From an uncultured Granulicella sp. (GTDB lineage Bacteria > Acidobacteriota > Terriglobia > Terriglobales > Acidobacteriaceae): DNA of 64,000 nucleotides. Numbering within the stretch: the stretch's first letter is position 1; each line of letters starts with the position of its first letter. Under the pieces are notes generated by a model. The model was not told where the DNA came from and did no database searches. It saw only the letters and a program-made list of their open reading frames with translations. The translations under genes were made by a program, and so were the position numbers. Shown here piece by piece: positions 5,819 to 51,164 of this stretch. The stretch covers positions 1,351 through 65,350 of the forward strand of contig CAIZFH010000285.1 in assembly GCA_903932155.1 (NCBI GenBank). Reading direction: 5' to 3'.

Positions 5819-7039
5819 TCAGCTCCTGGGTTTCTTGCCGAGCAGCCCACGATACAGCTCAACCGTCTGCGCGGCGATGGCCTGCCAGGAGAAGGTCTCT
5901 TCGACGCGCTTGCGTCCTGCCGCGCCGAACTTCGTACACAGGGCTGGGTCGGCCATCAACCGGGAGATGGGGGCGGCCAGATCGCGTGCGAAGCGGGCTG
6001 CGTCGAGCGGGAAGCCTGTGACTGGATCGGCATCGAAGGGCACCAGGAGGCCCATATCACCGTCGACAACCACTTCGGGAATACCGCCCACCGCGCTGGC
6101 TACCACGGGCGCACCACAGGCCATGGCTTCGAGGTTGATGATGCCGAAGGGCTCGTAGACCGACGGACAGCAGAAGACGCGGCAGTGGGAGTAGAGCTGG
6201 ATGGCCTCGACGCGAGTGACCATCTTCTCGATCCATACGATCCTGCCACCGGCGGCGCGCGCTGCCTCAACACCTGCGCGCATTTCGGCGGCAATCTCAG
6301 GGGTATCAGGCGCGCCCGCGCAGAGCACTACCTGCATCCCTGCGGGCAGATGCTTTACCGCATCGACCAGATGCACGACGCCCTTCTGGCGAGTGATGCG
6401 ACCGACAAAGAGAACGTAGGGCGCGGACGGATCGACGCCATACTTCAGCAGCGCGTCCGTTGCCGAGGTCTTGCGATACTCCGCAACGTCGATGCCGTTG
6501 TAGATGACATGCACACGCGCCGCGTCCACCTGGGGGTAGGCGCGCAGGATGTCGTCACGGGTGCCACGCGAGACGGCGATGATGGCGTCGGCGTCGAGGA
6601 TAGCTGTGCGCTCCATCCAGGAGCTCATGGCGTATCCCGAGCCAAGCTGCTCGGCCTTCCAGGCACGCAGCGGCTCCAGGGAGTGGGTGGTCAGGACAAA
6701 GGGAATCCCGTAGAGCTTTTTGGCCAGAAATCCCGCCATGGCCGCGTACCAGGTATGGGTATGTACGATGTCGATCTGCGCCAGGTCCTTCATCTGCGCC
6801 AGGTTCAGGGCCAATGCATCGACGGCAGTCTTGAATTTGGCGTCGCACCCGGCAGTGACCTCCGGCGGCGGCTGATCGCCGCGCACATGGAGGTTACCGG
6901 TGTCGAGCCGTTGCGTACCCCAGCAGTGCACCTCAACCTCGATCAGGCGGGCAAGCTCGCGGCTCAGGTACTCCACATGTACTCCCGCGCCGCCATAGAC
7001 TTCTGGGGGAAACTCCCGTGTTATCAAGCCAACCCGCAT
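5819..7039 (-). CDS. glgA: GT4 glycogen synthase, Corynebacterium/Mycobacterium GlgA (GlgM, maltose-1-phosphate synthase) type
   Basis: MRVGLITREFPPEVYGGAGVHV, HSLEPLRAWKAEQLG, FVGRITRQKGV and PSVYEPFGIINLEAMA are near-colinear with the actinobacterial GT4 GlgA/GlgM family (recalled, not searched). Start set at ATG 7039, preceded by GGTGGGGAG. Confidence 0.85.
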   Translation of the reverse strand: MRVGLITREFPPEVYGGAGVHVEYLSRELARLIEVEVHCWGTQRLDTGNLHVRGDQPPPEVTAGCDAKFKTAVDALALNLAQMKDLAQIDIVHTHTWYAAMAGFLAKKLYGIPFVLTTHSLEPLRAWKAEQLGSGYAMSSWMERTAILDADAIIAVSRGTRDDILRAYPQVDAARVHVIYNGIDVAEYRKTSATDALLKYGVDPSAPYVLFVGRITRQKGVVHLVDAVKHLPAGMQVVLCAGAPDTPEIAAEMRAGVEAARAAGGRIVWIEKMVTRVEAIQLYSHCRVFCCPSVYEPFGIINLEAMACGAPVVASAVGGIPEVVVDGDMGLLVPFDADPVTGFPLDAARFARDLAAPISRLMADPALCTKFGAAGRKRVEETFSWQAIAAQTVELYRGLLGKKPRS

Positions 7040-14227: not shown

Positions 14228-14998
14228 TTACTTAGAGATACCCTGCAGCGGCGAGCTGGCGGTAGCGTAGAGACGGCGCGCCATGCGGCCTGCGAGGAAA
14301 GCCTGACGGCCCGCGAGGACACCGTGCCGCATAGCCTCGGCCATCAGAATGGGGTTGTGGGCCTCGGCGATGGCGGTGTTCATCAGTACACCATCGAAGC
14401 CAAGCTCCATGGCGAGAGTGGCATCGGAGGCCGTGCCCACGCCGGCGTCGACGATGAGCGGGACTTCGGTGATGAGTTCGCGCAGGATGCGAAGGTTGGC
14501 GGTGTTCTGTAGGCCGAGGCCGCTGCCGATAGGTGCTCCGAGAGGCATGACGGCTGCTGCGCCGGCGTCGATAAGGCGATGGGCGTAGACGATGTCGTCA
14601 GAGGTGTAGGGCAGAACGGTGAAGCCCTCCTTGACCAGTACTCGGGTGGCCTCCAGTGTGGCCTGAATGTCGGGATAGAGAGTTGGTTTATCGCCGATGA
14701 CCTCAATCTTGACCCAGTCGGAGAGTCCCACTTCGCGACCGAGACGTGCCGCGCGAATCGCCTCGTCCGCCGTGAAACAGCCTGCGGTGTTGGGAAGCAG
14801 AAAGTAGCGCTTGGGATCGATGTAGTCGAGTAGCGACTCGGAGGAACGGTCGAGGTTGACACGGCGCACGGCTACTGTGACCATCTCCGCACCAGAAGCC
14901 TCGATGGCGGCCTTGGTCTGGGGACCATCCTTGTATTTCCCTGTTCCAACTATGAGGCGAGAGTTGAAGGTGCGACCTGCGATGACGAGAGATTCCAT
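14228..14998 (-). CDS. thiG: thiazole synthase
   Basis: [23 protein letters not shown] and [13 protein letters not shown] motifs; typical length of 256 aa. Confidence 0.92.
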
Positions 14999-15013
14999 GA
15001 GGGAAGTTTACTA

Positions 15014-15041
15014 GGTTCGAGGTTCAAGGTTCGAGGGAAAG
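15014..15041 (+). repeat. heptad microsatellite GGTTCGA GGTTCAA GGTTCGA GGGAAAG
   Basis: Direct reading: 7-nt period with a purine-rich tail. In complement orientation it lies within the thiG leader. Confidence 0.8.
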
Positions 15042-15077
15042 ACAAAAACACAAAACCCGCACCAGTGTAGCGCGGGC
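15042..15077 (-). terminator. intrinsic terminator-like hairpin upstream of thiG (minus strand)
   Basis: Minus-strand RNA CCCGCGCU-ACACU-GGUGCGGG (8 bp including 2 GU pairs) followed by UUUUGUGUUUUUGU. Lies 44-80 nt upstream of the thiG ATG. Confidence 0.55.
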
Positions 15078-15215
15078 TTTGCGGCGGTGAACTGTTGAGA
15101 TTGACCTGAGGCGTCCTAACTCAGACGGGCCTCGGCGCGGAAGTACTGCGAACGCCTGGACTAGAGCAGGACGCTCTAAGCCTCAGTCACCTCACGAAGC
15201 GTTGTGCAACTGTTG
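15078..15215 (-). promoter_or_regulatory. structured leader or small RNA candidate upstream of the thiG-proximal terminator
   Basis: Long-range pairing CUGAGG..GCGUCC with GGACGC..CCUCAG (15106-15116 with 15169-15186) encloses further GC-rich helices. No coding potential. Confidence 0.3.
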
Positions 15216-15364
15216 CTGTCAATTTTCATAGGCTGGACCATCCTCCTTTCCCGTGTAGGAAGAATGTATCGCCGATATTGTGGAAAAGCAAGTATGCGAC
15301 TCGCACGGACCGATGATTAAGCATCGTATGGAATGGCTGTTGCATCTTGAGCCGGGAGGCACGA

Positions 15365-15583
15365 ATGAAACCTTTAACCATTGTTGGATTACTACTGATT
15401 GTGCTCGGCATCCTCGGATTTGCCCTGGGCGGCGTGAGTTATACGCATGAGAAGCAGGACGCAAAGATCGGGCCGCTGGAGATCGACCATCAGTCGACGA
15501 ATACGATACCTATTCCACCGGTACTAAGCGGGATAGCGCTGGTAGGTGGAATTGCGCTGGTAATAGTGGGGAGTAAAGGCTGA
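15365..15583 (+). CDS. small two-TM membrane protein
   Basis: ATG 15365 preceded by GGGAGG. MKPLTIVGLLLIVLGILGFALGG and LSGIALVGGIALVIVG are hydrophobic helices. Confidence 0.65.
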   Translation: MKPLTIVGLLLIVLGILGFALGGVSYTHEKQDAKIGPLEIDHQSTNTIPIPPVLSGIALVGGIALVIVGSKG

Positions 15584-15804
15584 GACGTACCGAGGAGACT
15601 GACATGGGGGCCCATATTTGAGTTGGCATATACCCTATGGGGATATGTTATATTGCCTCAGATGGCGAGAAGCAAGCCGTCGTACAACAAATTAGGGCGG
15701 CACATTTCAGGATGACTGTTTGCACCCCATTCATACGGCTCAGTCCGGATAAAGACTGGATGCTATCTCTCCCCTGGCTATATAAGACACAGGCAGCTCT
15801 GCTG

Positions 15805-17244
15805 ATGCGGTCTCTGCTGGTTGTATTGCTCTTTTGCCCAGCGGCAGGCGAGGTCGCGGCACAGGCCTCGGGTTCACCGGCCCAAGAGACAGCGCATTCG
15901 ACAAGTGTGCAGCCTAAGCCGCATGCCGCTGGCCAGCCAGAATCTCTGACGATGTTTCCTCATCTCGACGGCACGCGGTATTACATCGCCGGACAGGCCA
16001 ACATCATCTTCCAGGCACATGGGCCGTTCCACTCGCCGTATGAGGGTATGAACAGCATGCTGGGGCGGGGGGAGTACAAGACGTCGCTGATCGGCACGCT
16101 GTATATGGGCGCGGAGCTGGTGCGAAACCCGGCGCGCCATCTGGAGGCTATCTACGACGAAGAGTCTGCCGGTGGGCGCGGCATCAGCGAAGCACTGGGG
16201 CTGGCAGGATTTACAAATCTGGACGTTGTGCGCAATCCCAATCTGGGCCCCACGCCTTATATGGCACGCGTGCAGTTGCATCAGACAATTGGCTTCTCAA
16301 GCAAGAGGGTGGATGCGGCGCGCGGACCGTTCTCGCTGGCGACCGAGGTGCCCGAGCGGCGGCTGGAGCTGCGCGTGGGCAAGATAGGGTTGCCGGATTT
16401 CTTCGACCTGAACAGCATCGGCACCGACAGCCACTTGCAATTTATGAACTGGACGGTGGACAACAACGGCGCATGGGACTACGCCGCCGACACACGCGGC
16501 TATACCTACGCCGCCATAGTGGAGTATGACGATAAGTACTGCTCCGCGCGCTACGGGCTGGCGTTGATGCCGACGGTAGCCAATGGGATCGATCTCGACT
16601 GGAGCCTTAAACGCACCAGCGGTCAAAACATGGAGTTCGAGTGGCGTCATGGCCTGCTGGGCGGACTGCTATCGCCTGAACACAAGGGAGTGATCCGCCT
16701 GTTGGGCTACGTCAACCATGCCAACATGGGCCTCTATCGTGCGGCGAATGCGGCGTATCTGGTGGGAGTGGACATGACGCCGGACATTACGAAGCATGAG
16801 ACGTTTGGCGCGGTGAAGTACGGCTTCGGCATGAACACCGAGCAGGAGCTGACAGCGGACCTGCGCGTCTTCGGACGTTTCGGATGGAACGAGGGGCAGC
16901 ACGAAAGCTACGCGTACACCGAAGTGGATCAGACAGTTGAACTGGGCGGCGACTTTGCGATCAGGCAATGGGGACGCGCCAGCGACAAGGTTGGGATGGC
17001 GTTCGTCTCGAATGCCATCAAGCGTGACCACCAGGAGTACTTGAAACTGGGCGGGGTAGGATTCTTGCTGGGCGATGGCAAGCTGAACTACGCGCGCGAA
17101 GACATTTTTGAGGGCTACTACACGCTGCATACCTGGCGCGGCCTTTACTACGCGCTGGATGCGCAGTACATTGTCCATCCCGGCTACAACCAGGAACGCG
17201 GGCCGGTACTGGTGGAGAGCGTGCGGATGCACGTGGACTTCTAG
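15805..17244 (+). CDS. carbohydrate-selective porin, OprB family
   Basis: FMNWTVDNNGAWDYAADTRGYTYAAIVEY and the overall beta-barrel pattern. Start chosen at ATG 15805 for the signal peptide MRSLLVVLLFCPAAGEVAAQA. The ORF is open from 15637, so the start is uncertain. Confidence 0.75.
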   Translation: MRSLLVVLLFCPAAGEVAAQASGSPAQETAHSTSVQPKPHAAGQPESLTMFPHLDGTRYYIAGQANIIFQAHGPFHSPYEGMNSMLGRGEYKTSLIGTLYMGAELVRNPARHLEAIYDEESAGGRGISEALGLAGFTNLDVVRNPNLGPTPYMARVQLHQTIGFSSKRVDAARGPFSLATEVPERRLELRVGKIGLPDFFDLNSIGTDSHLQFMNWTVDNNGAWDYAADTRGYTYAAIVEYDDKYCSARYGLALMPTVANGIDLDWSLKRTSGQNMEFEWRHGLLGGLLSPEHKGVIRLLGYVNHANMGLYRAANAAYLVGVDMTPDITKHETFGAVKYGFGMNTEQELTADLRVFGRFGWNEGQHESYAYTEVDQTVELGGDFAIRQWGRASDKVGMAFVSNAIKRDHQEYLKLGGVGFLLGDGKLNYAREDIFEGYYTLHTWRGLYYALDAQYIVHPGYNQERGPVLVESVRMHVDF

Positions 17245-17252
17245 AGTTTCCA

Positions 17253-17294
17253 GGTTCTAGGTGCTAGGTTCGAGGTTGAGGCAACGGGAAGACC
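17253..17294 (+). repeat. heptad microsatellite GGTTCTA GGTGCTA GGTTCGA GGTTGAG GCAACGG GAAGACC
   Basis: Direct reading. Ends 13 nt before the prepilin peptidase GTG. Confidence 0.75.
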
Positions 17295-17307
17295 GTATAC
17301 TTCATGC

Positions 17308-18252
17308 GTGACATTGCTTTACCAATACGAGCTGCTCGGATTTGTTCTTGGACTGCTGTTTGGCAGCTTTCTGAACGTGTGCATCTCGCGGCTACCGGCG
17401 CGCCGCTCCATCGTGAAGCCGCGCTCACACTGCTCGGCTTGCGGCCATCACATCCGCTGGATCGACAATCTGCCAGTGTTGAGTTGGATGATGTTGCGTG
17501 GGCGCTGCCGGGACTGCAAAGCACGAATTTCGTGGCGCTATCCAGCAGTGGAACTGCTCACAGGGCTGTGGTTTCTTAGGTTTTTTTCTGATACATACGA
17601 CATCTTTGCGGGGACCGCTAACACAGACCTTCTGTTATGGATTTGGTGGGGTCAACATTGGACCCTCCTTCTAAGCCAGTTCATCCTCGGCTTTTTGCTG
17701 ATTGGGCTAATGGTGATGGACTGGCAGACGCAGCGGCTGCCGGATGCGTTCACGCTGACCGGGATCGGCATCGGCTTCTTGCTGACCTGCGTGCAGGCGT
17801 TCTTTCTGGCACCGGGCGAGGGTGACATTGTGCTCGACACGACGCACCAGCTTCGGCTCTCCAGTCCTGGGAGCTTTGCGTCGCAGGGGAACGTCTTTCT
17901 GACCGGCACGGAGGCACTGATTATGGGCCGCTTTGCGGCCATCGCCGGCGCTGCGTTGATTCTGCTCACGGTGCGCTGGGGATACAAGGCACTGCGCAAA
18001 CGCGACGGCATGGGCCTGGGTGATGTGAAACTACTGGCTATGATCGCCGCGTTTCTAGGCTTCAGGGAGACATTGTTGGCCCTGTTTGTTGCTGTACTTG
18101 CGGCCAGTATCTACGGCATCCTATTGCTCGCCCGGCGACAGGCCAGTGGAAACAGCAAACTGCCGCTGGGCAGCTTTCTGGCGGCCGGGGGGCTGTTCAG
18201 CGCACTGTGGGGGCCGCGAATCGTGGAATGGTATGTGAGCTTGCTGCGATAG
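17308..18252 (+). CDS. pilD: prepilin peptidase (A24 family, leader peptidase/N-methyltransferase)
   Basis: FLNVCISRLP, zinc-finger-like CSACGHHIRWIDNLPVLSWMMLRGRCRDCK, and GLGDVKLLAMIAAFLG. Confidence 0.88.
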   Translation: MTLLYQYELLGFVLGLLFGSFLNVCISRLPARRSIVKPRSHCSACGHHIRWIDNLPVLSWMMLRGRCRDCKARISWRYPAVELLTGLWFLRFFSDTYDIFAGTANTDLLLWIWWGQHWTLLLSQFILGFLLIGLMVMDWQTQRLPDAFTLTGIGIGFLLTCVQAFFLAPGEGDIVLDTTHQLRLSSPGSFASQGNVFLTGTEALIMGRFAAIAGAALILLTVRWGYKALRKRDGMGLGDVKLLAMIAAFLGFRETLLALFVAVLAASIYGILLLARRQASGNSKLPLGSFLAAGGLFSALWGPRIVEWYVSLLR

Positions 18253-18339: not shown

Positions 18340-18747
18340 ATGACGAGCTACCCATACATTTGGAACTACCTACCGCTGGCGCTTCATATCGCGGGCGCGC
18401 TGGGCATTGCCGGCGGCATGGTAGCGGCTTCGTACCTCATCGGCAGGCACAGAAACTATCGAACAAAACTTGACCCCTATGAGTGCGGCATGGATCCGGT
18501 GGGCGACTCGCGAGGCCGCTTCTCCGTGCGTTTCTACATGGTTGCGATGCTGTTTATCCTGTTCGACGTGGAGGCTGTGTTCATGCTTCCATGGGCTGTT
18601 ATATTCCGCCGTCTGCCTGGCATTACGGGATCGGCGATGTTCGGCTTCTGGGAGATGCTGGTGTACCTCGGCTTCGTTGCCGTTGGCCTGTTTTATGTGT
18701 GGAAGAAGGGCATTCTGAACTGGTCGTACGACCGGGGAGACCAATAA
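18340..18747 (+). CDS. nuoA: NADH-quinone oxidoreductase subunit A
   Basis: YECGMDPVGDSRGRFSVRFYMVAMLFILFDVE motif; 135 aa. Confidence 0.92.
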   Translation: MTSYPYIWNYLPLALHIAGALGIAGGMVAASYLIGRHRNYRTKLDPYECGMDPVGDSRGRFSVRFYMVAMLFILFDVEAVFMLPWAVIFRRLPGITGSAMFGFWEMLVYLGFVAVGLFYVWKKGILNWSYDRGDQ

Positions 18748-19239
18748 ATGTACGACCCTGCGAGCGCGATCAACGGCAAGACTGACGTCTTCTCGGCTAT
18801 GGCAGAGAACCCCGCCGTGGTAGCGCTGACTGAGCTAGCCGCGGATGCGAAGTTCGACCGCAATGAGCTGACGATAACGGTGGCGCGAGAGAACATAGTC
18901 GCCGCGTGCGAGGCGGTGAAGGCCGCCGGATACAACTTTTTCGAGGACGTGACGGCAGTGGACTGGTATCCGCAGGAGCCGCGCTTCCAGCTTTCGTATC
19001 ACATCGTGTCGCACAGCCTGAAGCAGCGGGTTCGGCTGCGCGTCCTACTGGACTCCAGCGATGCGAGCATTCCATCCATCACTTCGGCATGGCCCTCGGC
19101 AAATTTTTACGAACGCGAGGTCTTCGACCTCTTCGGGATCGATTTTCCAGGCCATCCGCGCCTTACCCGCATTATGATGCCCGAGAACTGGCAAGGCCAT
19201 CCGCTGCGCAAAGACTACCCGGTGGAAGGTTACAGATAA
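18748..19239 (+). CDS. nuoC: NADH-quinone oxidoreductase subunit C
   Basis: ANFYEREVFDLFGIDFPGHP..LRKDYP motif. ATG directly abuts the nuoA stop (TAAATG). Confidence 0.92.
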   Translation: MYDPASAINGKTDVFSAMAENPAVVALTELAADAKFDRNELTITVARENIVAACEAVKAAGYNFFEDVTAVDWYPQEPRFQLSYHIVSHSLKQRVRLRVLLDSSDASIPSITSAWPSANFYEREVFDLFGIDFPGHPRLTRIMMPENWQGHPLRKDYPVEGYR

Positions 19240-19243
19240 GACA

Positions 19244-19278
19244 GGTACGAGGCACAAGGTTCAAGGTAAAGGCAAAGA
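19244..19278 (+). repeat. heptad microsatellite GGTACGA GGCACAA GGTTCAA GGTAAAG GCAAAGA
   Basis: Fills the nuoC-nuoD spacer and ends 4 nt before the nuoD ATG. Confidence 0.75.
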
Positions 19279-19282
19279 CGCT

Positions 19283-20542
19283 ATGGCACCGGTTGCAGCA
19301 CCCGACAGAATCACCCCCGGAGTGGAAGACGTCGTAGCCGACGCGAAGCTGCACGCCGGAATGGGCTCGGGCGAGCACTCCATGGTGCTTAACATGGGCC
19401 CGCAGCATCCGTCGACCCACGGCGTGCTGCGCCTGGTAATTGAACTGGATGGCGAGATTGTGGTGGCGCTTGCCCCGGACATCGGCTACCTGCACACTGG
19501 CATCGAGAAGACATGTGAGGCGAAGTTCTACCAGCAGGTGGTGCCGCTGACCGACCGCATCGACTATCTGTCTCCGATGACCAACAACCTGGCTTACTGC
19601 CTGGCGGTGGAGAAGCTGTTGGACCTGGAGATTCCGGAACGCGCGCAGCTCATCCGCGTGCTGCTGAACGAGATCACGCGCATCCAGTCGCACCTGGTGT
19701 GGCTGGGTACGCATGCCATGGACATCGGCGCGCTGACCATGTTTCTATACTGCTGGCGCGAGCGCGAGGCCACGCTGCGCATCTTCGAGGCGGTCAGCGG
19801 ACAGCGCATGATGACCAGCTACTTCCGCATTGGAGGCCTTGCGCTGGAACCGCCGATGGGATTCTATGAGTCGATCCAGACGTTCCTGGACAGCATGCCC
19901 GCTCACATCGACCAGTACGAAAATCTACTTACCGGCAATCCAATATGGATGGGACGGCTGAAGGGCGTGGGAACGCTCTCAGCGGCGGACGCGATTGCAC
20001 TGGGAGTGACCGGACCTCCGCTGCGCGCCAGTGGCGTGGACTGGGACCTGCGCCGCGATATGCCCTACTCCGGTTACGAAAGGTTCAAGTTTGATGTGCC
20101 AGTGAGCAACGTCGGCGATGTGTGGGCACGCTACACCGTGCGCATGTTGGAGATGCGCGAGAGTGTAAAGATTTGCCTGCAGGCGATGGGCATGCTGAAG
20201 GGAATGACCGGGCCGATTGTGGCCGACGCGCCCAAGATCGTGCTGCCCAACCGCGAGAAGATGAAGACCGAGATGGAGGCTCTGATCCATCACTTCAAAA
20301 TTGTGACCGAGGGATTCGGAGTCCCCGCCGGCGAAGTTTATCAGGCGGTGGAGAGCCCGCGCGGCGAGATGGGATACTACGTCGTCTCGGATGGGACGGC
20401 CAAGCCATATCGCGTGCACATGCGGAATCCGAGCTTTGCAACGTTGCAGGCCCTGGAGACGATGTGCAAAGGACGGCTCATCGCGGATGTGGTCGCGGTG
20501 ATTGGAAGCATTGATATTGTGCTGGGGGAGATCGATCGCTAG
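19283..20542 (+). CDS. nuoD: NADH-quinone oxidoreductase subunit D
   Basis: NMGPQHPSTHGVLRL, YLHTGIEK, ESPRGEMGYYV motifs. Confidence 0.93.
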   Translation: MAPVAAPDRITPGVEDVVADAKLHAGMGSGEHSMVLNMGPQHPSTHGVLRLVIELDGEIVVALAPDIGYLHTGIEKTCEAKFYQQVVPLTDRIDYLSPMTNNLAYCLAVEKLLDLEIPERAQLIRVLLNEITRIQSHLVWLGTHAMDIGALTMFLYCWREREATLRIFEAVSGQRMMTSYFRIGGLALEPPMGFYESIQTFLDSMPAHIDQYENLLTGNPIWMGRLKGVGTLSAADAIALGVTGPPLRASGVDWDLRRDMPYSGYERFKFDVPVSNVGDVWARYTVRMLEMRESVKICLQAMGMLKGMTGPIVADAPKIVLPNREKMKTEMEALIHHFKIVTEGFGVPAGEVYQAVESPRGEMGYYVVSDGTAKPYRVHMRNPSFATLQALETMCKGRLIADVVAVIGSIDIVLGEIDR

Positions 20543-34930: not shown

Positions 34931-34958
34931 TCTTCCTCGTGCCGAACCTCGTGCCTCA
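34931..34958 (-). repeat. degenerate heptad-like repeat in the ribE/ppk divergent spacer
   Basis: Minus-strand reading is GGCACGA GGTTCG GCACGA GGAAGAG. Plus strand shows TCGTGCC twice, at 34937-34943 and 34949-34955. Confidence 0.45.
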
Positions 34959-47007: not shown

Positions 47008-48207
47008 CTATCCCATTGCGATCTCCACCAGCGCCGTGGGCGCGTCCACGGTGCGCTTTAGCTGGCCGCAGGCGGCGTAGATGTCGCGGCCACGGGGCTT
47101 GCGCGTAAACGTTGGAATACCGCCGTCGATTAGCATGCGATGAAATACAGCGACATCGGCGGGCGCAGGCTCGTTCAATTCGATGCCGGGGCCGGGGTTC
47201 CAGACGATCAGGTTCACCTTGGCCTTCATTCCGGCCAACAACTTCAGCACCTCGCGCGCGTGCTGGGGCTGATCGTTTACGCCGCCCAGCAGGACGTACT
47301 CGAAGGTCACATACTCCCGCTTGCCGAATGGGATCGTGCGCAGCGCGTCCAGTAGTGCGGCGATGTTCCATTTCTTTGTCACCGGCATGATCTGCTCACG
47401 CACCTCGTCGTTGGGTGCGTTCAGACTAAGCGCCAGCTTGGGCCGAATGGGCTCGTTCGCAAAACGCAAGATCCCAGGCAGGATTCCCGAGGTAGACACC
47501 GTCATGCGCGACTCGGGTATGCCCATGGTGCGCAGCAGATGGACGCTCTTCATGAAGGCGTCGTAGTTGAGGAAGGGTTCGCCCATACCCATAAAGACGA
47601 GGTTGATGCGCGATGGCGTCTGGACACCGCGCCCGCTGCCAATGCGCACTCGCTGACGGTTGAGCACGGCGGCCACCTGACCGGCGATCTCGCCCGCAGT
47701 GAGGTTGCGCCTCATGCCGAGCTTCGCGGTGAGGCAAAACTGGCAGTTGACCGCGCAGCCCACCTGGCTGGAAATGCAGATGGTCGCGCGCTTGTACTGC
47801 TGTTCCCTGTTGCCTGTTCCCTGTTCGCCGGCCTCTTCTTCCAACGCGGCCTGGCTGCCATCGCCGCGCTCGCCGCCGTCGCCATCGGGCATCCACACGG
47901 TCTCCACGGTCTCGCCGTCGGCCATGCGCATCAGGTATCTCTCGGTGCCGTCCACCGAGCGCGTTGCCTGGGCTATCTCCGGTAGACCCACAATGTAACC
48001 CTCGGCGACGAGTCGCTGGCGCAGGTCTTCAGGAAGTGTGGTGATCTCGTCCAGCGTCTGTAGGCGCTGCTTGTAGAGAGCGTCGGCCAACTGCATGGCG
48101 CGGTACTTAGCCAGGCCGAGCGACGCGACCACGCCGCATAGCTCATCGGGCATCAACCCGAAGAGCGGGAGCGGCTGCGTCTCAGTTGTGATGTGATCCT
48201 TCACCAT
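47008..48207 (-). CDS. rlmN: 23S rRNA/tRNA (adenine-C2)-methyltransferase RlmN (radical SAM)
   Basis: ISSQVGCAVNCQFCLT radical-SAM cluster and GMGEPFLNY. Start ATG 48207; the track extension to 48408 overlaps the upstream gene. Confidence 0.9.
   Translation of the reverse strand: MVKDHITTETQPLPLFGLMPDELCGVVASLGLAKYRAMQLADALYKQRLQTLDEITTLPEDLRQRLVAEGYIVGLPEIAQATRSVDGTERYLMRMADGETVETVWMPDGDGGERGDGSQAALEEEAGEQGTGNREQQYKRATICISSQVGCAVNCQFCLTAKLGMRRNLTAGEIAGQVAAVLNRQRVRIGSGRGVQTPSRINLVFMGMGEPFLNYDAFMKSVHLLRTMGIPESRMTVSTSGILPGILRFANEPIRPKLALSLNAPNDEVREQIMPVTKKWNIAALLDALRTIPFGKREYVTFEYVLLGGVNDQPQHAREVLKLLAGMKAKVNLIVWNPGPGIELNEPAPADVAVFHRMLIDGGIPTFTRKPRGRDIYAACGQLKRTVDAPTALVEIAMG
47800..47827 (-). 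repeat. heptad repeat (GAACAGG)x4 inside rlmN coding sequence
   Basis: Plus strand reads CTGTTCC CTGTTGC CTGTTCC CTGTTCG. Encodes part of GEQGTGNREQQ. Confidence 0.75.
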
Positions 48208-48232
48208 GGCTACACCCAGTTTACTTGCCCAG

Positions 48233-49117
48233 TCAGGGAGTATCGCCCTGGACGTAGAGCACGGGCCCGCCGGGATGGAGCTTCCGAGCCAGCTTTTCCG
48301 CATCCTTTTGACTGACCGGCTGAACACTGATGGGGGATGCCAGGTAGAAATCCATCTGCGATTCGGCCGGTAACTGGAGTACCGGCCTGGGCGCTGCCAC
48401 TGCCGCAACCGCGACTATACCGGCCCCGACTGCTGCCCCCGCCGCCATGTCCTTGGCATTACTGGCTGGCGTAGGCCCGCCCTTAGTTGCGCGGGCGCTG
48501 ACGACGCCCCCGGCGATTGCGCCAATCACAGCGCCGCCTTCGAAGTCCGTTGCGGTCGGCTTCTCCTTGCTCGTTCCCTGGGCCCTCAAGTGATATGTAA
48601 AAAGCGGATAGGTATTATCGCCGAGGGACAGTGTGTCGAGTTTGAGCATCAGTTCGGGGCTTCCAGTCATCGCCCCGGCCTTCCTGGTCTCGATTACCTC
48701 GCCGAGAATCGTTGCACCGCGCGGAATAGCCAGCTCATGGTTGACAATCACGTTCTGGCTCACCGTGAAGAACACCGGCGCGCCTGCTTTCGACTGAGAG
48801 CTGCTTAAGGGCTGGTCTGACATCACCCGTATCAATGTGTTCTCAAGGACTGTGACGTGCGTTCCAGGAGTGCCGTAGGAGAGGGTTAGCGGTTGCGATG
48901 AGGAGGAGGATGACTGCCCCTGCAAAGAATCGGGAATTTGTTCGCTAGGTTGTCCCGGGCTGGCGACCGAAGAAGATGAATTCTGCAACTCCGCCCCGCC
49001 GCCAGGAGCAGGAGCTAGAACCGGTTCCTGAGCGAAGCCGGCAACCCCACTGAAGGCGACTATAGCGACTAAGGCTCCAATATGGGCAGAAAGCTCTCTT
49101 TGTAGCCGACTGAACAT
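48233..49117 (-). CDS. hypothetical secreted protein with Ser-rich linker and glycine-zipper segment
   Basis: Signal-like N-terminus, SSSSSS tract, GGAVIGAIAGGVVSA and AAGAAVGAGIVAVAAVAA. Confidence 0.6.
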   Translation of the reverse strand: MFSRLQRELSAHIGALVAIVAFSGVAGFAQEPVLAPAPGGGAELQNSSSSVASPGQPSEQIPDSLQGQSSSSSSQPLTLSYGTPGTHVTVLENTLIRVMSDQPLSSSQSKAGAPVFFTVSQNVIVNHELAIPRGATILGEVIETRKAGAMTGSPELMLKLDTLSLGDNTYPLFTYHLRAQGTSKEKPTATDFEGGAVIGAIAGGVVSARATKGGPTPASNAKDMAAGAAVGAGIVAVAAVAAPRPVLQLPAESQMDFYLASPISVQPVSQKDAEKLARKLHPGGPVLYVQGDTP

Positions 49118-50630: not shown

Positions 50631-51164
50631 ATGAAGAACACCCAACGTACCTTGAACCAAGAACCTCGGACCTCGAACCTTGAACTGGGCTTCACATTGA
50701 TCGAACTGTTGATTGTGATGTCGATCATGCTGATCATCATGGCATTTGCCGTCCCGCAGATGCTGAAGGTGAAGAAGACGGCGGACGAGGACTCCGCCAT
50801 ACAGACCCTGCGCACCATCGGATCTGCGGAGGCCAGCTTTAACTCCGCGTATCCGGGCACGGGCTATGCCTGTCCGCTGGCTTCGCTAGGCGGCGACCCC
50901 AAGTCCGGCGCTCCGTCAGCCACGGCCGCCCAGTTGATCGATCCCGCGCTGGCCACCAGCGGACAGAAGTCGGGCTACACGTTCACCGTCACCTGCGGAA
51001 CTAAAGTCACCGTCAACAATCAGGATATGTACACCTCGTACACCCTGACCGCCGTGCCCCAGACGGTAGGCAAGACAGGCGACCGCGGCTACTGCTCCGA
51101 CGAGAACGACATCATCAAGTTCGACCCAACTGGAGCGACCAACTGCACCCAGTCGATACAGTAG
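50631..51164 (+). CDS. prepilin-type N-terminal cleavage/methylation domain protein (type IV pilin / pseudopilin-like)
   Basis: G|FTLIELLIVMSIMLIIMAFAVPQ class III signal. ATG 50631 preceded by AGAGGA. Unusually long 20-aa leader encoded by heptad repeats. Confidence 0.85.
   Translation: MKNTQRTLNQEPRTSNLELGFTLIELLIVMSIMLIIMAFAVPQMLKVKKTADEDSAIQTLRTIGSAEASFNSAYPGTGYACPLASLGGDPKSGAPSATAAQLIDPALATSGQKSGYTFTVTCGTKVTVNNQDMYTSYTLTAVPQTVGKTGDRGYCSDENDIIKFDPTGATNCTQSIQ
50645..50686 (-). repeat. six imperfect heptads (complement of GGTWCRA) inside the pilin leader-peptide coding region
   Basis: Plus strand reads ACGTACC TTGAACC AAGAACC TCGGACC TCGAACC TTGAACT. Confidence 0.8.

Follow-up and report, generated by a model that had tools for sequence, protein, structure and literature searches.

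Short tandem repeats of the unit CTCTT lie in the signal-peptide coding region of the Neisseria opa genes, and the short tandemly repeated repetitive (STRR) sequences of cyanobacteria were reportedly described by Mazel et al. in 1990. In many prokaryotes, long simple sequence repeats (LSSRs) are most often built from heptanucleotide units, an abundance attributed to slippage of the polymerase (Mrázek, Guo & Shah 2007, as summarized in PMC4679880). Two heptamers have been characterized by their position relative to genes: TAACTGA repeats of Beggiatoaceae, cyanobacteria and Bacteroidetes directly precede start codons (MacGregor 2015, PMC4679880), and GGGNATC repeats of Xanthomonas and Nostoc show an orientation bias, being preferentially antisense in the 50 bp ahead of open reading frames (ORFs) and preferentially sense in the 50 bp that follow stop codons (Rehm et al. 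2015, PMC4692102). Effects on expression have been reported for TTTTGAA/TTCAAAA repeats near start codons in Nostoc, which affect a reporter (bioRxiv 10.1101/2022.06.06.494920), and for the (ATCTTTC)n tract in the 5' untranslated region (UTR) of Haemophilus influenzae hmw1A, which tunes expression via an RNase III hairpin (PMC12721329). Here we analyzed tandem arrays of a further heptamer, GGTTCRA (complement TYGAACC), in a stretch of 64,000 nucleotides, hereafter the window, from contig CAIZFH010000285.1 of an uncultured Granulicella sp. (assembly GCA_903932155.1), a soil or peat Acidobacteriaceae genome.

An initial annotation of the window had reported five such loci in 5' leaders, regarded them as unexplained, and proposed a shuffled null, a scan of relatives and other genomes and a search for unit-number polymorphism between strains. 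We could confirm (GGTTCRA)n arrays at four of these five loci, and the family is real and dispersed; the known phenomenon of heptanucleotide simple sequence repeats (SSRs) fits them (PMC4679880, PMC4692102). In our assessment the loci are probably SSRs of the LSSR/STRR kind that are driven by slippage, confined to gaps that tolerate them, and active at most as structure-free spacers.

Tandem GGTTCRA arrays in the window

A two-unit search pattern (GGTTCRAGGTTCRA, at most two mismatches) matched the window 10 times, compared with 0.99 ± 0.99 matches (maximum of 4) in 100 dinucleotide-preserving shuffles, an excess well beyond chance within the window. Tandem Repeats Finder returned period-7 arrays at 15013-15036, 17244-17281 and 50649-50685. 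A unit-by-unit scan with a minimum of three units and a maximum of two mismatches per unit returned 15014-15034 (three perfect units), 17246-17280 (five units), 19244-19264 (three units) and 50645-50686 (six units, minus strand). Self-similarity at lag 7 was detected in five regions of the window, in contrast to none at lags 8 and 10-15. Assemblies made independently (ENA, JGI and Logan) give the same array sequences, which excludes an origin in misassembly.

Two of the arrays are sense, one is antisense and one is coding, at distances of 4-27 nt from start codons. Array 1 (15013-15036, plus strand; AGGTTCG AGGTTCA AGGTTCG AGG, 3.4 units) contains three perfect units, GGTTCGA GGTTCAA GGTTCGA, and lies in complement orientation 15 nt from the thiG ATG, with its G-rich strand on the plus strand and antisense to thiG. 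Array 2 (17246-17294, plus strand, sense) consists of five imperfect units, GTTTCCA GGTTCTA GGTGCTA GGTTCGA GGTTGAG, at 17246-17281, followed by a purine tail GGCAACGGGAAGACC that ends at 17294, 13 nt before the GTG of the prepilin peptidase gene (17308). The degenerate array 3 (19244-19278, plus strand, sense; GGTACGA GGCACAA GGTTCAA GGTAAAG GCAAAGA) fills the 43-nt spacer between nuoC and nuoD and ends 4 nt before the nuoD ATG. Array 4 (50645-50686) comprises six imperfect units inside the pilin gene pilA; its G-rich strand is the minus strand, and the coding strand reads ACCTTGA ACCAAGA ACCTCGG ACCTCGA ACCTTGA AC.

These four placements agree with the initial annotation. The purine-rich tail that it described as usual is real at three arrays, with a conserved AAAGGCA at nuoD. 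Its description of the loci as 5' leader elements is too narrow, as array 3 is intercistronic, array 4 is coding, and arrays 1 and 2 may lie upstream of the transcript (see below). The fifth locus, at 34931-34958 on the minus strand, was rejected: it is a 12-nt direct duplication (GGCACGAGGNNN twice) upstream of ribE, in which no repeat tool finds an array and in which a single GGTTCGG occurs by chance. The upstream regions of ribE orthologues on the contigs of four relatives carry no array either, and the N-terminus MFTGLIETTG shows that the start of RibE was called correctly.

As the initial annotation had argued, the arrays are neither CRISPRs nor tRNAs: their units are contiguous and lack the unique spacers found between CRISPR repeats, and ARAGORN finds no tRNA, notwithstanding the T-arm-like GGTTCGA. 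No Rfam family matched the whole window at gathering threshold. In RNA folding, each of the four arrays scored below its shuffled controls (z between +0.5 and +1.75), and of 200 shuffles of the pilA region, 197 gave a better fold than the real sequence. The arrays are accordingly predicted to be structure-poor segments, contrary to the earlier suggestion of REP-like (repetitive extragenic palindromic) RNA elements.

Pfam domains recognized in the window include ThiG, A24 prepilin peptidase, NuoA, NuoC, OprB porin, RibE and Ppk. The GC skew is positive over 12-24 kb, where the three plus-strand arrays are located, and negative over 44-64 kb, which contains the minus-strand pilA array; array orientation may follow the replication or skew strand, a trend that is not significant with four arrays. 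Another heptamer array with a different unit, (CTGTTCC)3.9, was noted at 47800-47826, in frame within an RlmN-like radical-SAM gene (47008-48408, minus strand); its translation, AGEQGTGNREQQ, separates the RlmN_N domain from the Radical_SAM domain.

Variation of the arrays at orthologous sites

Loci fetched from strains, relatives and other genomes are labelled here by L-numbers (L002, L126 and so on). For the junction of nuoC (18748-19239, plus strand; Pfam Complex1_30kDa) and nuoD (19283-20542, plus strand; recognized by its NuoD homologues), 80 orthologous nuo loci were fetched with NuoD as query. The NuoD protein of the window is 87-91% identical to NCBI proteins named 'MAG: Acidobacteriaceae bacterium'. 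In most of the orthologous loci, nuoC and nuoD overlap as TAATG or TGATG, and a spacer with an array was found only in the clade of the window (NuoD identity of about 86% or more). There are two exceptions, L134 and L135; in L134, for instance, TGATG is retained even though NuoD is 91% identical. As the overlap prevails among relatives and the array is limited to one clade, the comparison shows that array 3 was inserted into an ancestral, translationally coupled TAATG junction and subsequently expanded and contracted. The spacers of the clade hold about 2-8 sense units of the GGTTCRA type, or 4-11 phased units including the degenerate tail. The longest array, with 11 phased units, belongs to L137, whose 177-nt spacer also has REP-like hairpins. 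All nuoC-nuoD arrays end in a conserved AAAGGCA located 10-17 nt before the ATG, which is probably a weak Shine-Dalgarno (SD) sequence of nuoD.

The REP-like hairpin elements inserted in the nuoC-nuoD spacer of L135 and L137 are GGGGCTAAAGCCCC and GCCGGCACTAAAGTGCCGGC; L135 has the hairpins without an array. The nuo cluster of the window (18340-20542) contains nuoA, nuoC and nuoD, with no nuoB between nuoA and nuoC, and this order is the same in all fetched relatives.

Array 2 occupies the spacer between the OprB stop codon and the GTG of the A24-family prepilin peptidase gene (17308-18252, plus strand; Pfam A24_N_bact and Peptidase_A24), just upstream of a TATACT box at 17296-17301 (plus strand) that precedes the GTG by 6 nt. 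A near-identical strain contig, L002, differs by one single-nucleotide polymorphism in 160 nt and carries an extra GGTGCTA unit in this array. Unit-number polymorphism between strains is thus present, and together with the range of unit numbers at nuoC-nuoD it bears out the initial description of the arrays as slippage-prone tracts. The unit itself also changes at this site, from the GGTTCGA type in the window, L128 and L131 to GGTTGTT/GGTTGCT in L132 and AGTTGTT in L133. The array is absent at the orthologous site of L126, the closest relative, as well as of L129 and L130.

Array 1 is identical across five strain contigs. It is located upstream of thiG (thiazole synthase; 14228-14998, minus strand; Pfam ThiG, E = 8e-108), between the U-tract of a terminator on one side and a conserved GTAAACT box, ending 6 nt before the ATG, on the other. 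The terminator-like hairpin (15049-15083, minus strand) has 16 pairs and a T-run that abuts the array, and is kept in relatives; the -10-like TAAACT lies at 15005-15010 (minus strand). A period-7-like repeat is found at this spot in five of five aligned lineages, with the unit AGGTTCG in three copies in the window, L131 and L135, GTTGCAG in L126, and CAGTTGT in L129, which reads (CAACTGA)n in the mRNA sense. The 24-nt array is identical at 22 of 24 positions (92%) among the window, L131 and L135, in comparison with 54% identity at four-fold degenerate sites of thiG between the window and L131 (151 sites) and 42% between the window and L126. Conservation of the thiG array exceeds the neutral decay expected of a three-unit repeat and points to selection or gene conversion.

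About half of the 76 called genes have an SD-like motif, and neither thiG nor the A24 peptidase gene is among them. Instead, TAnACT occurs 6-7 nt before the start codons of thiG, ruvC, the A24 peptidase gene and an rRNA methyltransferase gene, in the forms TAAACT-N6-ATG (thiG), TATACT-N6-GTG (peptidase) and TACACT/TAGACT (ruvC); the comparison covered the regions upstream of ruvC, thiG and the peptidase gene in L126, L129 and L130. From its position, TAnACT looks like the -10 element of leaderless mRNAs. A strict sigma-70 promoter scan at arrays 1 and 2 found no promoter, which leaves the TAnACT motif to carry the -35/-10 idea. If thiG and the peptidase gene are leaderless, arrays 1 and 2 would lie in the zone upstream of the promoter and not in a 5' leader.

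The minus strand at 15046-15230 contains a conserved structured thiG leader with a long GACUGAGGC...GCCUCAGGUC pairing, which ends in the 16-bp terminator hairpin and U-run. The leader is kept in relatives despite saturated synonymous sites and belongs to no Rfam family. An Rfam search of 14950-15700 at E <= 10 gave no family, with only weak terminator-like similarity to leader families, and no thiamine pyrophosphate (TPP) riboswitch upstream of thiG. The leader is a candidate for an unclassified attenuator or riboswitch of thiazole synthesis.

A translated array in the pilin leader peptide

The pilA gene (type IV pilin, 177 aa; 50631-51164, plus strand) has a GAGGA Shine-Dalgarno sequence before the ATG at 50631 and encodes the leader MKNTQRTLNQEPRTSNLELG, with cleavage before FTLIELLIVM. 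Array 4, which reads TYGAACC on the coding strand, is translated as TLNQEPRTSNLEL within this leader. We compared about 230 PilA orthologues, comprising 120 best hits (67-100% identity) and the members of ten 90% clusters, and most of them have repeat leaders of the LEPRTSN type. LEPRTSN results when three TYGAACC units (21 nt, or 7 codons) are translated cyclically. Its Arg is nearly invariant, because CGA occupies the place where TTGAACC would create an in-frame TGA, and Ser/Leu varies (TCG/TTG). Orthologues without an array have leaders of 11 aa (MKTKFRTADEG) that share the N-terminal MKTxxRT. Overall, mature pilins that are almost the same can follow leaders as short as 11 aa or as long as 53 aa.

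Since seven is not a multiple of three (7 mod 3 = 1), gain or loss of one unit would frameshift the pilin, and the placement of an SSR in the leader-coding region of a surface-structure gene is that of a phase-variation tract. Among the PilA loci of relatives, no verified OFF allele was found. The array is in frame in the Granulicella locus L040, the gene is in frame in L458-L461, and four of four near-identical strain contigs agree on a single allele of 177 aa. In L214, the ATG preceding four perfect units is 65 nt (mod 3 = 2) from the mature frame, and one additional unit would restore the frame; the assembly behind this contig is of the long-read style, and the shift may be a 1-nt error. 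L215 was dropped as an OFF candidate because it is too error-ridden to read. PilA calls of 147-148 aa were likewise rejected as OFF alleles: P0280, the one that was looked up, has an open frame with other repeats, and its short call is a gene-caller artefact.

Other insertions were seen in the PilA leaders of relatives, namely an 18-nt tandem repeat (PQILAS x4) and a REP-like insert (LSFRSEAEESA) (L458-L461; P0243, P0298, P0285). With such varied inserts, the leader-coding segment appears to be a landing pad for small repeats. In repeat-bearing relatives, gene callers misplace the pilA start at an internal MSIMLII.

Heptamer arrays in other genomes

In 774 kb of Acidobacteriaceae DNA we counted 21 arrays of period 7 with at least 2.8 copies, compared with 4 of period 8, 7 of period 6 and 15 of period 9. 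The predominance of period 7 was more pronounced in 852 kb from genomes carrying GGTTCRA (among the matches listed), which contain 256 arrays of period 7 versus 29 of period 8. Other units make up 152 of these 256 arrays, with more than 100 different ones, and GGTTCRA is one favoured unit within a general heptamer phenomenon. At the thiG and OprB-peptidase sites of relatives, the units are alike within an array and different between orthologous arrays, which is the signature of concerted evolution by slippage.

The proposed scan of other genomes was run with (GGTTCRA)3 on one genome per GTDB species. It returned at least 120 genome loci, whereas about 2 would be expected by chance according to our own estimate from pattern length and collection size. 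The matches listed include Acidobacteriota, Desulfobacterota, Bacteroidota, Planctomycetota, Verrucomicrobiota and Chloroflexota, as well as Omnitrophota, Patescibacteria, Firmicutes (Desulfosporosinus), Cyanobacteria and several Proteobacteria, and their arrays range from 3 to 32 units, four being the most frequent number. Among viral contigs, 87 stretches contain (GGTTCRA)3, compared with 9, 19 and 20 for three composition-matched permutations and 107 for (TAACTGA)3.

Gene context was assigned to 220 arrays from other genomes (125 genome arrays among the matches listed and 95 viral-contig arrays) with a crude greedy-ORF model and no gene finder. Of the genome arrays, 88 of 125 are intergenic, compared with 15% of sequence that is non-coding (p = 5e-43). 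Their orientation, as tabulated by this model, depends on position: near stop codons the G-rich strand is sense in 32 cases versus 11 (p = 0.002), and near start codons it is antisense in 21 cases versus 8 (p = 0.024). The same trend is weaker in the viral set (16 versus 12 and 16 versus 10). The adjacency to start codons stressed by the initial annotation therefore holds in Acidobacteriaceae, at 6-20 nt, but not in general, since arrays in the other genomes are found at stop codons as often as at starts. Among the Acidobacteriaceae loci, arrays in sense orientation occupy the junction between a stop codon and the start of the next co-directional gene (arrays 2 and 3 of the window, L056, L092, L084, L007), and antisense arrays are located 6-16 nt upstream of first genes (thiG, L026, L031, L076).

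An inverted (TYGAACC)n partner follows, within 150 nt, 24 of the 125 genome arrays and 19 of the 95 viral-contig arrays. The G-rich arm comes first in these pairs by 43 to 1, with the opposite order seen once in genomes and never in viral contigs. Altogether, three rules are visible in the data: G-rich mRNA follows stop codons or lies inside operons, C-rich mRNA occurs only ahead of first genes, and the G-rich arm is first in inverted pairs.

Composite elements of the form (GGTTCRA)n, loop, (TYGAACC)n were observed in many phyla (L013-L121, for example L015 at 6642-6720, L053, L098 and L109) and in viral contigs (L216-L302). Abutting arrays of unlike heptamers, such as CCATTTA, ACATTAC and CGCATTA, were also noted in other genomes, along with telomere-like GGTTAGG/GGTTTAG in L006 and L118.

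Origin and possible roles of the arrays

If the arrays are slippage-driven SSRs, as we consider probable, slipped-strand mispairing in the course of replication would both create them and alter their length, a process that would keep the units of one array alike and let the unit drift between lineages. Arrays would survive only where the sequence is free to vary, as in gene-boundary spacers and in the cleaved PilA leader peptide, where the array is read through as LEPRTSN repeats. Because the two strands of the unit differ in composition (3 G : 1 C or the reverse), a transcribed array would be unable to pair with itself and would form a structure-poor spacer. A sense array may supply a phased AGG, and at nuoD the conserved AAAGG tail may replace the lost stop/start coupling. 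An antisense array would provide a C/A-rich unstructured stretch beside a start codon or core promoter.

Several observations weigh against slippage as the whole explanation. Slippage alone is not expected to preserve the thiG array at 22 of 24 positions next to a gene whose four-fold sites are 54% identical, and this conservation implies selection or gene conversion. The seeding of a repeat in the zero-length nuoC/nuoD junction is left unexplained by the model. Neutral slippage does not explain why viral contigs contain 4-10 times more GGTTCRA arrays than arrays of permuted heptamers. Lastly, the consistent location of Acidobacteriaceae arrays 6-20 nt from start codons, combined with the orientation rule, hints at function. 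In its broadest form, a functional reading would unite the GGTTCRA/TYGAACC and TAACTGA/CAACTGA heptamers into a class of cis-elements that follows transcript-level rules across phyla, with the pilA array acting additionally as a frameshift switch; we hold such a class to be doubtful. The pattern of the three rules would fit either recognition by a conserved factor or avoidance of Rho-loading sites. In the latter case, we infer that C-rich, unpaired, untranslated RNA would serve as a Rho-loading site and be avoided inside transcription units, which would explain both the orientation and the pairing rules.

The arrays could also be dedicated translation-initiation elements, as the initial annotation suggested and MacGregor proposed for TAACTGA, that is, ribosome stand-by or enhancer sites or binding sites of RNA-binding proteins (S1, Csp or CsrA-like) that define a regulon of genes with poor SD sequences. 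The distances to start codons (4-27 nt in the window, 6-20 nt elsewhere in the family) are compatible with this, as are the absence of structure, the presence of SD-like motifs in only about half of the called genes and their lack at thiG and the peptidase gene, and the excess conservation of the thiG array over synonymous sites. The (CAACTGA)n of L129 at the thiG site is, moreover, one base off the TAACTGA of MacGregor (PMC4679880), and heptamer repeats near start codons have effects in Nostoc according to a preprint (bioRxiv 10.1101/2022.06.06.494920). However, arrays occur in both orientations, and a single RNA motif cannot therefore be the signal. Unrelated heptamers replace the unit at the same site, and the genes remain intact in L126, which lacks array 2, and in L130 and most of the family, which lack array 3. 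Across phyla, arrays among the matches listed abut stop codons more than start codons (43 versus 29). In addition, judging by their TAnACT boxes, thiG and the peptidase gene may be leaderless, and their arrays would then lie outside the transcript. We regard this role as possible but unlikely.

Somewhat less credible are contingency loci, in which gain or loss of units would switch or tune expression, above all by frameshift in pilA but also through copy number at promoters or 5' UTRs. This idea draws on the location of array 4, which falls where the leader peptide of a surface protein and phage receptor is encoded, the spread of leader lengths among near-identical mature pilins, the out-of-frame L214 allele, the length polymorphism at array 2 and the hmw precedent (PMC12721329). 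But the pilA array of the window has no identical adjacent units, and slippage should therefore be rare. The four near-identical strain contigs do not differ at pilA, the 147-148-aa "OFF" calls are open frames miscalled by the gene finder, and for L214 and L215, both from long-read-style assemblies, a 1-nt error gives the same picture. Furthermore, thiG and nuoD are housekeeping genes and odd targets of phase variation.

A function in DNA, through phased protein-binding sites or -35-like hexamers upstream of TAnACT (TTGAAC in TYGAACC, CTGACA in CAACTGA), appears very unlikely. Both orientations would be expected of a double-stranded site, arrays are immediately upstream of TAnACT, which is 6-7 nt before the starts of thiG, the peptidase gene and ruvC, and conservation is above the neutral level; by eye, L129 has CTGACA 18 nt upstream of TAAACT. 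The strict sigma-70 scan was nevertheless empty at the thiG and peptidase sites, and the spacing from the candidate -35 to TATACT, again judged by eye, is inconsistent among orthologues (14-20 nt). Array 3 is internal to an operon and array 4 to a gene, and at a period of 7 bp, neighbouring sites do not face the same side of the helix.

The case for G-quadruplexes, in which four or more phased GG tracts would form two-tetrad structures in DNA or RNA as in GGGNATC repeats, is highly improbable. GG is invariant in the nuoC-nuoD arrays of nine lineages in which positions 3-7 vary, the commonest copy number is 4-5 (among the matches listed), and the orientation bias has the same direction as that of GGGNATC, sense after stops and antisense before starts (PMC4692102). 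On the other hand, the window units have GG only and no four runs of at least three G, and GG tracts with 5-nt loops would give weak two-tetrad quadruplexes. The replacement units AGTTGTT and CAGTTGT lack GG, and the copy-number mode is confounded by the requirement of at least three perfect units. Finally, REP-like or MITE-like (miniature inverted-repeat transposable element) hairpins and transcription terminators, suggested by the long hairpins that arrays with inverted partners form in other phyla (24 of 125 genome arrays among the matches listed and 19 of 95 viral-contig arrays), can be dismissed for the window, where none of the four arrays has an inverted partner or the stable hairpin of REP elements, bacterial interspersed mosaic elements (BIMEs) or MITEs, all fold worse than shuffled and no Rfam family matches.

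The loci amount to natural experiments: an essential nuoC-nuoD operon in which coupling was broken by an inserted array whose unit number then varied widely, a three-unit thiG array conserved far above the neutral rate, and an array read through as LEPRTSN in the pilin leader of many Acidobacteriaceae. They also carry a warning for annotation, as heptamer arrays displace the predicted starts of genes and lengthen "leader peptides". Should the orientation rules stem from the biology of Rho or of the ribosome, these arrays would offer a simple and portable handle on expression in poorly studied soil bacteria.

Comparison with known heptamer-repeat systems

In the searchable literature, we found no description of GGTTCRA arrays or of LEPRTSN pilin leaders. 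Text searches for the unit sequence gave incidental matches only; for instance, a Porphyromonas gingivalis paper rich in GGTTCAA contains single occurrences in oligonucleotides and not arrays. The nearest systems differ from the window arrays in unit, length or placement.

The cyanobacterial STRR and Nostoc heptamers are likewise tandem, dispersed between genes and often near start codons or promoters, and Nostoc TTCAAAA differs from the rotated window unit TTCAAGG at two positions; they belong, however, to another phylum, have other units and often form much longer arrays. The tracts of hmw and opa resemble array 4 in lying beside or inside the leader region of a surface-structure gene with a unit length that is not a multiple of three. 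In contrast to the short and imperfect window tracts, they are long and perfect (11 or more units in hmw), and their switching has been demonstrated.

TAACTGA repeats are similar in forming 2-6 direct copies a few nucleotides upstream of the starts of genes without an SD sequence in distant phyla (PMC4679880). They are mostly in forward orientation, whereas the window arrays occur in both orientations and also in an operon-internal spacer and a coding sequence. The window unit is GGTTCRA and not a TAACTGA-family unit; the near-match CAACTGA, one base from TAACTGA, was found only at the thiG site of L129. GGGNATC repeats share with the window arrays their nature as dispersed heptamer SSRs, the non-coding excess, the variable unit number and the orientation bias (PMC4692102). 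Their units contain GGG/GGGG tracts and have been shown to form quadruplexes, while GGTTCRA contains only GG, with which a strong quadruplex would be unlikely.

A close match is with the LSSRs of Mrázek and colleagues, as far as they are summarized in PMC4679880. The window arrays and their relatives show the same head-to-tail 7-nt units, tandem excess beyond chance, predominance of period 7, intergenic or non-coding bias and polymorphic unit number. They differ in being short (3-6 units in the window), in their tight placement at gene boundaries, in the unit GGTTCRA and in the Acidobacteriaceae lineage. The arrays are thus a new example of the known bacterial heptamer-repeat phenomenon and not a new kind of element. 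They add a new heptamer unit and a new phylum to the cases of cyanobacteria, Beggiatoaceae, Xanthomonas and Haemophilus, in which the origin and function of such repeats are debated.

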